This document shows, in pieces, positions 2,456 through 6,140 of a DNA stretch of 64,000 nucleotides. A model generated the notes under the pieces. It saw only the letters and a list, made by a program, of their open reading frames with translations. It did no database searches and had not been told where the DNA came from. Position numbers and translations under genes: made by a program. The DNA lies in contig OZ252114.1 in NCBI GenBank assembly GCA_965248635.1, forward strand, positions 3,103,309-3,167,308, given 5' to 3'. The DNA comes from Acidobacteriota bacterium. GTDB taxonomy: Bacteria; Acidobacteriota; UBA6911; RPQK01; CBDAPI01. Every line of letters starts with the position of its first letter. Position 1 is the stretch's first letter.

Positions 2456-2859
2456 TTTTCCTGGCAGTGCCGTGTAAAGTCGGCGATCTGGCGACGGACT
2501 TCCTGTGGCGGAATCTTCACCAGGTTGGGGTGACTAATCGTGTGATTGGCGACTTCGAAACCAAGTTTGTCCAGTTCGCGCACGTCTTCCCATGTCAGGC
2601 GCCCCTCGCCTCCAAACCCTAACGCTTCGGTCACAAAGAACGTTGCTCCGAATCCCAGCCGCGTGAGCGCGTGAGCGACATACGTAAGGTCCGATTTGTT
2701 GCCATCGTCAAACGTCAGGACTATAAGTTTGTCCGGAATCGCTTCCCGTCCTCTCTCCTCCCCGCGCAGCGCCGAGGCACCGAGTAGGAAGAGCAGCATG
2801 GACAGAAAGACGATCCCGGCAAGCGGACTGGAAAGCGAATCATCGAAGCGGTTATTCAT
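2456..2859 (-). pseudogene. polysaccharide deacetylase (NodB domain) gene fragment, 3'-truncated
   Basis: Signal peptide followed by NodB motif 1 (TFDDG) and motif 2 (HTISHP). Motifs 3-5 are missing. The ORF continues as non-homologous read-through into the IS91 3' end (track ORF 2110..2859). Confidence 0.6.
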
Positions 2860-2940
2860 GGGGATGAGACGGTTTTTGAGGCGAAGCCTAATTGGACAGC
2901 GCCACTAAGGGTCGGCGCGGAATTAACTTTACATTTTGGA

Positions 2941-3915
2941 CTAAGCAGCTTGCTGGGTTTCAGGGGTCGGCGGGTCGGCTTGAACGGTGGTTAGAATCGC
3001 CTCCGAGTGCGGTTGTGCACGGCTTTGGGGTCTGGGTGAGAAAGTGTAGTTCCATTTTCCGAGGAAGTTGCTTCTAGCGAAGGAAAGCTGCTCCAGTTGC
3101 TGGTCTGAAACCTTGATTCCTTTCTGGTAAACTCGCCGGTCGCGGTAGGCCTCCACGCGTAGCCCGGTCAGGGTGCGTGTTTTGCGGGCGAAGTCGACGA
3201 GGGTCTGAAAACTTTTGAGCGGCTCTCCGGCCCAGTTCTTGGTGATTTCGCTGAAGAGTCGGTGTTCGATGGGGTTCCACTTGCTGGCGCCCGGGGGATA
3301 GTGGGCCACGGTAATGGTGAGTCCATAGGGGTCGGCGAGCCTCTCCTGGAGAAGCTTCTTCCAGGCGCGAGGGGCGGCTCCGTTGCTTCCGCCACAGTCG
3401 GCGAGAACCAGCAGGCGTTGGGACCGGCGGTAGTGGTCTTGACCGTGCTGACGCCACCAGGTGAGGATGCTGTTGACGGCAAAGGCTGGCGTATCGGCGG
3501 ACTGCCCCACCACCAGCACGCCAAAGTTGCGGCCCACATCGTAGATCCCATAGGGGCAGGCCAAGCCCACAGCCTGGGAACGAAAGTCATGGTCTTGGAC
3601 CTGCGGGGCGTCGCGACACCAGATCTTACCGGGGTTCTTGAACAGACCGATGAGCTCTTTTTTCTTACTATCGACGCAGATGACCGGGTCGCCGCTCTGG
3701 GCGAACTGCTGGCGCAATCGTTTGATGATCGCGAACTGGGCGTCCCGATAAGGGGAGTTTCCCGCCGACAGGCATTTTCGGTTACTCTTTAACGAATAGC
3801 CCAGCTTTTTGAGCAAGCGACGCACAGCCGTGGCCGAGATCTTCAGCTGCAGACTTTCGGCCAGGCAGCGGGCGATCTTTTCGGCCGTTTGATGAGTCCA
3901 TCTCCTGGCCGACAT
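2941..3915 (-). CDS. ISAzo13-family transposase, C-terminal DDE part (Rhodopirellula-type DDE transposase domain)
   Basis: …HYPPGASKWNPIEHRLFS… and DDE-type core. It is in the -1 frame relative to the upstream ORF. Confidence 0.75.
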   Translation of the reverse strand: MSARRWTHQTAEKIARCLAESLQLKISATAVRRLLKKLGYSLKSNRKCLSAGNSPYRDAQFAIIKRLRQQFAQSGDPVICVDSKKKELIGLFKNPGKIWCRDAPQVQDHDFRSQAVGLACPYGIYDVGRNFGVLVVGQSADTPAFAVNSILTWWRQHGQDHYRRSQRLLVLADCGGSNGAAPRAWKKLLQERLADPYGLTITVAHYPPGASKWNPIEHRLFSEITKNWAGEPLKSFQTLVDFARKTRTLTGLRVEAYRDRRVYQKGIKVSDQQLEQLSFARSNFLGKWNYTFSPRPQSRAQPHSEAILTTVQADPPTPETQQAA

Positions 3916-3962
3916 CGGGTCACCAGCGGTATCCGGCTCCAGCAGGCAACGGATCTGCTCGA

Positions 3963-4724
3963 TTACCTGCGGCGTTTTTTTTCGATGCGTTTTCGACCCC
4001 CGCCCGCCTTGCGCACCCGGCCCCGCCTCACCGAACCGGTCAACAGTTGCCGACGCCCCTTGGCCACGGTCTGGGGGACCAGATCCAGAAGCTCGGCCAT
4101 CTTCCGGTCACCTCCGTGGCCCAGTTTGGCCGCCTCCAGGCCGGCGTAGAGCCGTCTTTGCTTCTCATCCAGCAGACTGAAAAACAGGATGATGGCCGCC
4201 CTGAGTTCGTCCGGCAGAAACTCGCTCTCCAGGGTGGCACCCACCTGCCGGCGATCCTCGCCCTCTTGGCGCATCAACTCCTGACGCCTCCGCTCACCAG
4301 CCTCCTCGCTGAGGTAGACGAAGTTTCCCCCCAAGCGAGTGCGCCCAATCCTGCCTCGGCGCACCTGTCGCAGCAAGGCATGCTTGACCTCCACCTGCAG
4401 CACCGACTCCAACTCCGAGGCGGTGTAGCCCGCTTCGGATCGCTGCACCAACACGGCTGCCGTCTCCTGCAGATTCCCGAATCGGCTGAAGCGGGCCGAG
4501 CGCCAGCTCCACAAACCCCGACCATCGAAGTCAGCAATCTCCGCCAAGGTGTAGAACCGGCCCCGGTGTGAATAGCTGCTCAGATAGCCCAGTCGTGACA
4601 GACCACGGAACACCGTCATGGTGGCTGTGGTCTCAAGAGCTGCCTTGAGCTCCTCAATCGTGGCTATCCTATTGTCAGTTAACAGGTTGTGCAGTTTCGT
4701 ATCGCGTTCTCGTGACCTTTTCAT
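3963..4724 (-). CDS. ISAzo13-family transposase, N-terminal (HTH) part; ends at a stop immediately after an A8 tract
   Basis: Basic/HTH-like N-terminal region ending …GGGRKRIEKKRRR*. The downstream frame continues the same protein. Confidence 0.7.
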   Translation of the reverse strand: MKRSRERDTKLHNLLTDNRIATIEELKAALETTATMTVFRGLSRLGYLSSYSHRGRFYTLAEIADFDGRGLWSWRSARFSRFGNLQETAAVLVQRSEAGYTASELESVLQVEVKHALLRQVRRGRIGRTRLGGNFVYLSEEAGERRRQELMRQEGEDRRQVGATLESEFLPDELRAAIILFFSLLDEKQRRLYAGLEAAKLGHGGDRKMAELLDLVPQTVAKGRRQLLTGSVRRGRVRKAGGGRKRIEKKRRR

Positions 4725-4961
4725 TTGGTATAGTTTCCCCTCTACGTATCACACAAGGGGTAATTATACCAACTATTCCCACTCCTTACAACCGTCGTAA
4801 CTGCTTAACTTAACGAAGTTTAATGAGAAATGAGCGGAAACATCGGGAAGCTACGGGTGGTATTGATGCCCTGAGTACTGTGATTTTGTTTTTGCGCCAG
4901 CCCTAAGGTCGCGATCTACATCAGCCGCAGGGCGGCTGATACATATTACGAAAATCGCAGG

Positions 4962-6140
4962 TTACTCCATAATGCGCCGTCCAACTACTGCGCTGCGTCC
5001 AAAATTAACCTGATAGGAATCAAGGTCGCGCGACACTGCGCTTTCGAACTCTCGTAAATAACTGTGCGGCGATCCTGCCCAGTAATGAACGATGAGCAGG
5101 TCTTCACCCATCACCACAGCGCTGGGATAACCGAAATCGCCACTGACAGGAGTCGTCAATCGAAGCTGGTTCGAAGTGTCCCAGGTCTTGCCGCTATCCC
5201 GTGAAAGGATTCCTTGGATGTCTCTCTCCTTATCTCTTCGATTGCCGAAAATCAGGAGGATCGTGTCATGACCCAGATCGATAAGGTCAGCAGGATGCTG
5301 CCTTTTATCAGTCGCTTTCGCCACATGCCGCCAACTGCGGCCCTGATCGACGCTGCTGTAAATATCCAAGTGCGCACCATGGTGGGCATCGCGCGCGGCG
5401 GCAAGCAGCGTGCCACTGTCGAGTGCGAGCAAGCTCGTTTCGTTGTGGCCCGCGGCGATCAACGAAACGTCTCCCCAGCTGACCCCTTCATTCGTGGATC
5501 GGGCCAGGTAAGCATAATCCTCAACGTCATCCGTAGGGTTCGTGATCCCTGGGACGTCGGGGGCATGTGCGCCGTAGACGTTTTGGATATAGCTACCGTC
5601 GGACAGACGAATGATGCGACCGTAGGGTGAAGTCGTTTCCACGGTACCCAACTTCAGGTTCTGGAATTCAGACCAAGTCCGACCCTCATCATCGGAATAG
5701 ACCTGTATGTCTCTCGCCAAATCGAAGGAGGGTTCGTAAATTCCGTCCCCGGTGTAGCTGGACTGATGGTGAAACCCAAGCAGAAATCTCCCCTCAGGCG
5801 TGATGCCAAACGCCGGGTTGCGGTCATCGGCTGATGTATCAACTGCCGTCCGCTTCCCATACCACAAAAGCCCATCATTGGAGAAGAACAGGTCCAGTCG
5901 CCCTCCGATTCCCAGATGTCCGCCTCCTCCCCGCAGGACCACAACGGCTCGACCATCGGGAGCGAGATCGATCACTGGGAAATGCCCCTGCCCCTCAGCC
6001 ACCATCGAGGATCGAACCTCAGGGTGCGCGCCCAAATCGATTGGTGCGGCGACCTGAGATATCAGAGAAAGCAGGACGGATTGCAACAACATTGCGCGGT
6101 TCCTCAAACGGGGTTTCATGAATGGAATTGTGGAATTCAA
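4962..6140 (-). CDS. BNR/Asp-box repeat glycosyl hydrolase (sialidase-like), secreted
   Basis: Signal peptide (MKPRLRNRAMLLQSVLLSLISQVAAP). Four SxDxGxTW Asp-box motifs (SDDEGRTW, STNEGVSW, SVDQGRSW, SRDSGKTW). Confidence 0.7.
   Translation of the reverse strand: MNSTIPFMKPRLRNRAMLLQSVLLSLISQVAAPIDLGAHPEVRSSMVAEGQGHFPVIDLAPDGRAVVVLRGGGGHLGIGGRLDLFFSNDGLLWYGKRTAVDTSADDRNPAFGITPEGRFLLGFHHQSSYTGDGIYEPSFDLARDIQVYSDDEGRTWSEFQNLKLGTVETTSPYGRIIRLSDGSYIQNVYGAHAPDVPGITNPTDDVEDYAYLARSTNEGVSWGDVSLIAAGHNETSLLALDSGTLLAAARDAHHGAHLDIYSSVDQGRSWRHVAKATDKRQHPADLIDLGHDTILLIFGNRRDKERDIQGILSRDSGKTWDTSNQLRLTTPVSGDFGYPSAVVMGEDLLIVHYWAGSPHSYLREFESAVSRDLDSYQVNFGRSAVVGRRIME

Follow-up and report, generated by a model that had tools for sequence, protein, structure and literature searches.

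Frameshifting is listed for only four families of insertion sequences (IS), namely IS1, IS3, IS5 and IS630, in the 2016 review of Atkins and colleagues (PMC5009743). Within these, the shift heptamer is A_AAA_AAC in IS1 (InsA/InsAB') and A_AAA_AAG in the IS3 family (IS911, IS3411), and some IS630 elements (e.g., of Roseiflexus) carry A- or T-runs at which their transposase is expressed by transcriptional realignment or a -1 frameshift. Productive slippage on runs of eight adenines (A8) in IS elements was also inferred by Baranov and colleagues in 2005 (PMC1088944). Here, we describe an IS of the ISAzo13 family in a window of 64,000 nucleotides (the whole stretch of DNA analyzed, i.e., positions 3,103,309 to 3,167,308 of contig OZ252114.1 from an Acidobacteriota bacterium; coordinates below are those of the window), whose transposase is split between two open reading frames (ORFs), orfA and orfB, that meet at an A8 run. 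Elements of the ISAzo13 family have a single transposase ORF and no frameshift (ISfinder family table), and a literature search, with ISfinder and TnPedia outside its scope, found no paper linking ISAzo13 with frameshifting. Sequence comparisons support the view that this A8 run, kept in evolution, is a programmed recoding site and that the element is intact and recently transposed; more than a hundred relatives from many bacterial phyla are split in the same way.

The element is complete and lies on the minus strand at 2909..4903 (1,995 bp), limits set by the points where similarity to two independent copies begins and stops. These copies, on a JGI contig (L178) and an ENA contig (L179, whose k141 name suggests a MEGAHIT short-read assembly), are the same IS as the window copy (98.4-98.7% nucleotide identity), sit in unrelated flanking DNA and both carry A8. 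Similarity among the independent copies opens at GGGCTGGCGCAAAAAC... and closes at ...CCGCGCCGACCC, corresponding to window positions 4903 down to 2909. Both ends are flanked by a 3-bp TAA duplication within the target C-TAA-G (2906..2908 at the orfB end, 4904..4906 at the orfA end), and on these two grounds the limits of 2916-4830 given in a preliminary description of this locus are too narrow. The ends themselves (GGGTCGGCGCGG...) agree with those of a ~20-copy relative from Thermoanaerobaculia: the terminal inverted repeat at the orfB end (GGGTCGGCGCGGAATTAACTTTACATT read inward, 2909..2935, plus strand) is near-identical to its counterpart there, and the imperfect repeat at the orfA end (GGGCTGGCGCAAAAACAAAATCACAG read inward, 4878..4903, minus strand), which is identical in all three independent copies of the IS, agrees with its counterpart at ~16/26 positions in a hand alignment. 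Given the intact ends, the TAA duplication and the copies in unrelated flanks, the window copy is a complete element that has genuinely transposed, in all likelihood recently.

Only one copy of this IS is found within the 64-kb window. Elsewhere on the same 5.43-Mb contig, two further orfA variants (the proteins P0131 and P0132) end in ...IEKKRRR*, and a 475-aa protein encoded outside the window (P0139) is identical to the window orfB over ~270 residues before continuing into unrelated sequence, which indicates a probable truncated second copy of the IS in the source genome.

The T8 run on the plus strand at 3975-3982, i.e., A8 on the minus strand, is located exactly where the two frames meet. 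The product of unshifted expression would be that of orfA (3963..4724, minus strand, 253 aa, ending ...RKRIEKKRRR*), which reads the run as GAA (3983-3981), AAA (3980-3978) and AAA (3977-3975), and whose end, ATC GAA AAA AAA CGC CGC AGG TAA, reaches its TAA stop (3963..3965) three codons past the run. The heptamer A_AAA_AAA at 3981-3975 is thus in the X_XXY_YYZ register of the orfA frame. In the -1 frame, orfB (2941..3915, minus strand, 324 aa from the called ATG, MSARRWTHQ...) encodes the DDE domain (PF07592, E = 2e-103), and its motifs VDSKKKE, LADCGGSNG and KWNPIEHR are intact and fall in invariant columns of the orfB protein alignment. This frame is open from 4107, giving a 145-nt overlap with orfA, and contains no ATG, GTG or TTG before the ATG at 3915, so that the linker TPQVIEQIRCLLEPDTAGDP (3916..3975, minus strand), encoded in the -1 frame only, is reachable only by a shift out of orfA. 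The downstream ORF is therefore in the -1 frame relative to an in-register heptamer and lacks a start of its own for the conserved overlap. A -1 slip at the run gives ...IEKK-TPQVIEQIRCLLEPDTAGDP-MSARRW..., a continuous protein of 594 aa, with IEKKTPQVIEQIR as the junction peptide of the predicted OrfAB fusion.

When fused in this way, the protein matches the NCBIfam profile of ISAzo13 family transposases (NF033519) unbroken over positions 3-387 of 387 (457.5 bits, for a cut-off of 200), and Pfam PF07592 with E = 4e-108. Taken separately, orfA covers only profile positions 3-74 (orfA residues 183-251) and orfB only positions 95-387, so that positions 75-94 come solely from the stretch of the -1 frame that precedes the orfB ATG. 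This bears out the preliminary description, which had assigned both ORFs to one ISAzo13 transposase in frames 0 and -1, had recognized the A8 junction as a perfect X_XXY_YYZ site and had stated the continuous protein that a -1 slip would give. The size and ends of the element (1,995 bp, GGGTCGGCGC... and GGGCTGGCGC..., 3-bp TAA duplication) also fit the family, whose elements measure ~1.25-2.2 kb, duplicate 0-4 bp of their target and have terminal inverted repeats starting with G (ISfinder). All these features, like the transposase, place the element in the ISAzo13 family. It departs from the family description in a 180-aa N-terminal extension and in its lack of a single ORF, as two frames are joined at A8 both here and in the whole clade to which it belongs (hereafter the long-N-terminus clade); a single ORF is however a descriptive rather than a defining feature, so that membership by transposase stands.

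An A8 run alone is unremarkable: although this one is the sole homopolymer of at least eight nucleotides in the window (G+C 57.5%), ~0.5 such runs are expected by chance per 64 kb. What counts is its placement exactly at the frame junction, together with its conservation. Protein searches returned two types of relatives, continuous proteins of ~565 aa at 45-61% identity and many orfB-only proteins of ~330 aa at 62-71% identity. The closest orfB-only cluster comprises 16 contigs, and the DNA of the eight that were read is in every case split at GTC GAA AAA AAA CAG CGG AGA TAG, with orfB starting 48 nt past the end of the upstream ORF (called with 253 aa in two of them, as in the window, and with 162-176 aa in the others). 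To extend this comparison, 159 loci were gathered from metagenome and genome collections using the orfB alignment, and the frames of the helix-turn-helix and DDE parts were compared in each. In 111 loci, exactly A8 is found with its first A at codon position 2 (GAA AAA AAA) and a long downstream ORF in the -1 frame; 58 of these are non-redundant (<90% identical over 163 nt around the junction). The A8 run is thus invariant across these 111 related loci and, as the preliminary description had proposed to check in other copies and homologues, is kept at the same codon position. In their DDE region, the non-redundant relatives are 44-69% identical to the window protein, and they come from more than 10 phyla according to the labelled hosts, which include Acidobacteriota, Planctomycetia, Deltaproteobacteria/Desulfobulbaceae/Desulfosarcina (Desulfobacterota), Spirochaetota, Fermentibacteria, Aegiribacteria, Bacteroidota, Kiritimatiellae, Gammaproteobacteria, Nitrospirae and Verrucomicrobiae, among others.

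Several genomes hold many copies of such elements with A8 and orfB in the -1 frame: ~20 copies in a Thermoanaerobaculia chromosome (OY761158.1, every copy), ~12 in Marinacidobacterales (OZ253507.1, plus one A9 copy, L136), four in a Desulfosarcina chromosome and five in a Terriglobia genome. These multicopy elements, which keep the split, seem to have been recently active. In the Thermoanaerobaculia chromosome, the ~20 copies (L098-L112, L124-L126, L146) are identical over 2,005 bp and lie in CTNAG sites with TNA duplications; in one of them (L105), another IS end directly follows, at about 3580, which suggests a tandem or nested insertion. A decayed close relative, found in four assemblies (L009-L012, the element encoding P0023), has kept A8 (ATC GAA AAA AAA), its N-terminal part having come into the orfB frame through an internal deletion in orfA, and its DDE domain being interrupted by another break.

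A minority of relatives is in frame: A9 occurs in L062, L136 and the four loci encoding P0002, A10G in L013 and L173, the locus of P0034 is continuous as well, and a continuous relative of 558 aa carries A10G. A few in-frame variants are expected from replication slippage on such a run, and the A9 and A10G variants could be constitutively expressed products of this process; alternatively, they could be homopolymer errors, some lying on low-coverage long-read contigs (tags 4x, 10x). In-frame variants (L136 and L174-L177, all of the Marinacidobacterales-type element, as well as L013 and L173) are seen at several distinct loci beside many A8 copies of the same element. A different class of continuous homologues is formed by the canonical ISAzo13 members, which read VEDADP, TLDKDP, AENREP, etc., at this place, with neither EKK nor an A-run. 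Such homologues without the run, which the preliminary description had set against a programmed site, do exist, but they form a separate, basal canonical clade in a neighbor-joining tree of 99 non-redundant DDE domains, in which every other clade carries a run, and the programmed reading stands. In the plasmid collection, whose gene table omits pseudogenes, most members are canonical and continuous.

The codons at the junction show that selection acts on the nucleotide run rather than on the protein. Outside this site, AAA encodes 41% of the lysines and GAA 47% of the glutamates in the same 58 elements, and other Lys-Lys pairs of the same ORFs are encoded by AAAAAA in 26/194 cases. From this codon usage, the joint probability that all 58 use GAA AAA AAA is ~1e-73 when elements are treated as independent, a figure that is overstated, as they share ancestry, without the conclusion being so. 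Synonymous positions on either side of the run vary freely, and the case for selection on the run is made stronger by the canonical members, which show that the protein needs neither EKK nor an A-run. Past the run, the linker is protein-conserved in the -1 frame (motif TP..I..LL..DTAGDP, with T at 100%, P at 90% and AGDP at 100%) and contains no stop in any of the 58 relatives (0/58), and the orfA frame itself stops 6 to 14 codons from the GAA in 58/58. Upstream of the run the ORFs stay open over a median of 772 nt, and past it over a median of 951 nt.

On the basis of these conservation, codon and linker facts, we reject chance, as well as three explanations in which no recoding takes place. 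In one of these, OrfA and OrfB would be separate proteins, OrfB being made from the ATG at 3915 by independent initiation or by re-initiation 48 nt past the orfA stop. The called orfB does start with an ATG, and this Met is nearly invariant in the closest relatives (M21 of the orfB alignment), but many split lineages have Ile or Val in its place, the 20 codons that precede the ATG are conserved as protein and correspond to profile positions 75-94, the canonical members join the helix-turn-helix and DDE parts in one polypeptide, and selection on the A-run would be left unexplained, all of which makes separate synthesis very unlikely. Less probable again is a pseudogene that lost one A from an ancestral in-frame A9, for which the continuous A9 and A10G relatives and the general nature of homopolymers as mutation hot spots could be invoked: A8 is found in 111 loci against a handful of A9, multicopy genomes are almost wholly A8, both ORFs are otherwise intact everywhere, and the ends of the window copy are intact and flanked by a target-site duplication. 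Least probable of all is an assembly or sequencing error masking a true A9. Homopolymer length errors do happen, notably in long-read assemblies, but A8 is identical in the independent assemblies of the same IS (L179, k141; L178, JGI), many contigs of relatives whose NODE_ or k141_ names suggest short reads also have A8, and other copies in the source genome share the orfA C-terminus. Of the options left by the preliminary description, an inactivated element or a lost A is thus contradicted by the 111 loci, the independent assemblies and the multicopy genomes, and the same evidence, including the ~20 copies of a single genome, favors the programmed -1 frameshift or transcriptional slippage that it had put forward.

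We thus propose a mechanism in which most expression events would read orfA to its TAA stop and yield the 253-aa protein composed of DNA-binding modules only, while a minority would change to the -1 frame on reaching the run and so give the 594-aa OrfAB, in which these modules would be combined with the DDE domain, so that transposition rate would be tied to the frequency of the shift. The main route would be the addition of one A at the run by RNA polymerase, followed by normal translation of the A9 mRNA; a tandem ribosomal -1 slip on A_AAA_AAA would yield the same protein and may contribute, the two routes possibly acting together. The sequences show the anatomy of the site, its conservation and the selection on the nucleotide run; production of the fusion protein, the role of OrfA and the identity of the slipping machine are all inferred here, and we consider a programmed site with polymerase slippage as its main route to be an even call.

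The lean toward polymerase slippage comes from several observations. Lineages with intact ORFs but a +1 relation are nested in -1 clades, and a -1 slip of the ribosome could not join their two frames: L063, L088 and L089 (in which A8 is read as AAA AAA AAC), L031 and L130 (A7, +1, beside their sister L147 with A8, -1), and L037 (A9G) and L085 (A8GG), both +1 and within an A7G clade. Both -1 and +1 relations are therefore found at the same run among homologues, and according to Antonov and colleagues pairs of +1 and -1 clusters within one transposase family argue for transcriptional realignment (PMC3711429). Consistent with this, no IS element with +1 ribosomal frameshifting has been identified, and several of the recently studied IS elements with transcriptional realignment shift +1 (Atkins and colleagues, 2016 review, PMC5009743). 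The lack of a conserved stimulatory structure 3' of the run (see below) and the slippage inferred for A8 in IS elements by Baranov and colleagues (PMC1088944) count in favor of the polymerase as well. A number of points weigh against slippage of the polymerase, however. Nine is the usual threshold for efficient slippage of the Escherichia coli enzyme, which places A8 at the low end even if eight has been reported as productive (PMC1088944), and only A7 is present in some sister lineages. Every +1 lineage is represented by single metagenome contigs, and defective copies may be among them. The X_XXY_YYZ register is perfect in 111/111 loci, which fits ribosomal frameshifting at least as well, and in a sister clade with a short N-terminus ~eight loci read GAA AAA AAG with orfB in the -1 frame and seven A's only. 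Finally, shared ancestry tempers the codon statistics given above, and we infer slipped transcripts, like the fusion protein, from sequence.

The register and the sister-clade heptamer are what would be expected if the same site and products relied mainly on the ribosome, through a tandem -1 slip of two Lys-tRNAs without stimulator, as in IS1. Both A_AAA_AAA and the A_AAA_AAG of the sister-clade lineages are established -1 frameshift motifs (PMC3711429; PMC4066793), the orfA frame ends 6 to 14 codons past the site in each of the 58 non-redundant relatives, and the window copy has a local 9-bp hairpin 4 nt past the heptamer (3942..3970, minus strand, z = -1.79). The register is however non-discriminating between the two routes, since it is forced by the conserved Glu-Lys-Lys-Thr codons, the hairpin is lineage-specific and not conserved in the clade, which has no conserved 3' structure, and the nested +1 lineages are left unaccounted for. 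A mainly ribosomal shift is in our view a close rival, if somewhat less likely than not.

At -1 sites of the IS1/IS3 type, a stimulator (a 3' stem-loop or pseudoknot, or a Shine-Dalgarno-like sequence 10-14 nt on the 5' side) is common without being obligatory. The search for a conserved stimulatory RNA structure near the run was negative: RNAalifold predicts zero consensus pairs for a conserved 3' structure across the 58 relatives, the 50-nt segment past the run has a stability no higher than that of control segments taken from these genes (mean percentile 0.54), and Rfam gives no match at E <= 1 in 2800-5000, including no frameshift element. Motifs of the GGNGG type upstream of the run are Gly codons with varying spacing. 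We also considered a hairpin holding A8 in its loop, as several relatives have a CCGGTG-G-A8-CACCGG look; the mean stem is 3.05 bp vs. 3.08 bp when downstream arms are swapped between elements, and we reject this hairpin, the palindromic look being due to the Pro, Val and Thr codons around the run.

A second A-run site was detected in the family, inside the D-x-KKK-E-L motif, ~100 codons downstream of the A8 site. On a plasmid of Calothrix sp. NIES-4101 (AP018275.1, 2011-2018, L181), an ISAzo13-type element annotated as two "transposase" genes is split at ACC AAA AAA AAG AAT TAA (A8G, -1), and on a plasmid of Microvirga lotononidis (NZ_CP141049.1, 1762-1770, L180) the site reads TCG AAA AAA AAA GGA (A9, +1), with 11 matching places in the record. 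A-run recoding may thus have evolved twice in the ISAzo13 family. Baranov and colleagues (2005, PMC1088944) also reported Nostoc IS elements with A8-A10 runs, for which no family was named, and these may be ISAzo13-type elements using this second site. It is tempting to go further and propose that the whole, large and ancient clade uses pure polymerase slippage on A8 without any helper, with at least four flips between -1 and +1, in addition to a second origin of recoding at D-x-KKK-E-L (cyanobacterial and alphaproteobacterial), a view to which we lend somewhat less than even belief. If true, ISAzo13 would be the fifth major IS family with programmed recoding, and its clade would offer a natural series for the shortest run on which RNA polymerases of different phyla can slip.

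The AlphaFold model of OrfA, the protein made without a shift, (pLDDT 85.9) displays winged-helix-like modules at residues 20-60 and 85-140, a long helix and a helix-turn-helix region, and its best fold matches, with weak E-values, are tandem winged-helix proteins (ScpB, SelB, and the MarR and ArsR families). As modelled, OrfA would be composed solely of DNA-binding-like modules. By analogy with InsA of IS1 and OrfA of IS911 (PMC5009743), it is probably a regulator or inhibitor that competes for the IS ends or represses the promoter, the rare OrfAB fusion probably being the transposase. The N-terminal extension of OrfA (residues 1-180; 4185-4724, minus strand), predicted with high confidence to fold into the two winged-helix-like modules, is conserved across the A8 clade; neither the ISAzo13 profile nor the canonical members include it, and no significant Pfam or PDB sequence match was found for it.

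Upstream of orfA, an inverted repeat able to form a hairpin ends at the ATG (4725..4772, minus strand): TTGGTATAATTACCCCT, a 14-nt loop, then AGGGGAAACTATACCAA and the ATG, with arms at 4772-4756 and 4741-4725. A start-codon repeat of this type, with arms of 10-24 bp, ends at or includes the ATG in almost every lineage (e.g., L098 at 1790-1850, and most of L001-L172). Its arms differ between lineages yet remain complementary (mean longest run of 12.6 nt vs. 8.2 +/- 0.26 with permuted partners). The sole sigma-70-like match on the minus strand of 2800-5000 is a promoter-like site at 4763..4791 (TTGTAA, a 17-nt spacer and a TG-extended TATAAT, 10/12 positions), whose -10 hexamer sits inside the 5' arm of the hairpin, the 3' arm holding a Shine-Dalgarno-like GGGG or GGAGG. 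In IS10 and IS50, read-through transcripts fold back and are thereby poorly translated, and by analogy the arrangement seen here suggests the same: in transcripts that enter the element from beyond its ends the ribosome-binding site would be hidden, whereas those initiated at the element's own promoter would start within the 5' arm and leave it exposed. Alternatively, the repeat could be a palindromic operator for OrfA.

In the window, the IS is flanked by two minus-strand ORFs of 392 aa (4962-6140) and 249 aa (2110-2859), starting 59 nt past the stop of the former and finishing 50 nt upstream of the start of the latter, which it may have parted from its promoter.

This type of mechanism has long been established, and what is new is that the ISAzo13 family joins IS1, IS3, IS5 and IS630, a useful extension rather than a surprise. 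The annotations examined list these elements as a pair of unrelated small genes or as "hypothetical protein". With the A8 site recognized, a very widespread transposase could be annotated correctly in genomes derived from metagenomes, and the dozens of natural variants (A7, A7G, A8, A9, A10G; -1, +1 and in-frame) would be a resource for studying how run length and the host polymerase or ribosome affect transposase level.

Compared with known systems, the window element shares with canonical ISAzo13 members (ISAzo13, ISStsp1, ISScl2, ISRop2) the same DDE transposase (NF033519, PF07592), size class and short target duplication, but the transposase of these is encoded by a continuous ORF of ~400 aa that has no A-run at this place and lacks the 180-aa tandem winged-helix extension. 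IS1 resembles it in its A-rich heptamer, the lack of a known stimulator and the close orfA-frame stop; its transposase however belongs to an unrelated family, its shift has been shown to be ribosomal whereas we lean to transcription here, and the OrfA described here is much larger (253 aa, with three DNA-binding-like modules). Elements of the IS3 family follow the same OrfA/OrfB/OrfAB logic, and their A_AAA_AAG is the heptamer used in register by the sister clade, but their signals usually include a 3' stem-loop or pseudoknot, in many cases together with a Shine-Dalgarno-like element on the 5' side (PMC5009743), whereas no conserved structure was found here.

The A- and T-run elements of the IS630 family come closest by mechanism. 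Like the window element, they are split between the helix-turn-helix and DDE parts, with a run of 8-9 A conserved among homologues and of varying length between copies, and the Deinococcus IS elements with A8/A9 runs, to which Baranov and colleagues (2005) gave no family name, may be of this IS630 kind. The TA-like, TNA-centred target is shared as well, although the duplication is here a 3-bp TNA within CTNAG instead of TA. Slippage in the Roseiflexus IS630 needs a nascent-RNA hairpin 5' of T5C5 (PMC5009743), whereas no run-linked hairpin is supported here. The fused transposase matches the IS630 profile NF033545 with E = 4e-16 (59 bits, vs. 457 bits for NF033519), which makes the two groups distant kin belonging to different families.

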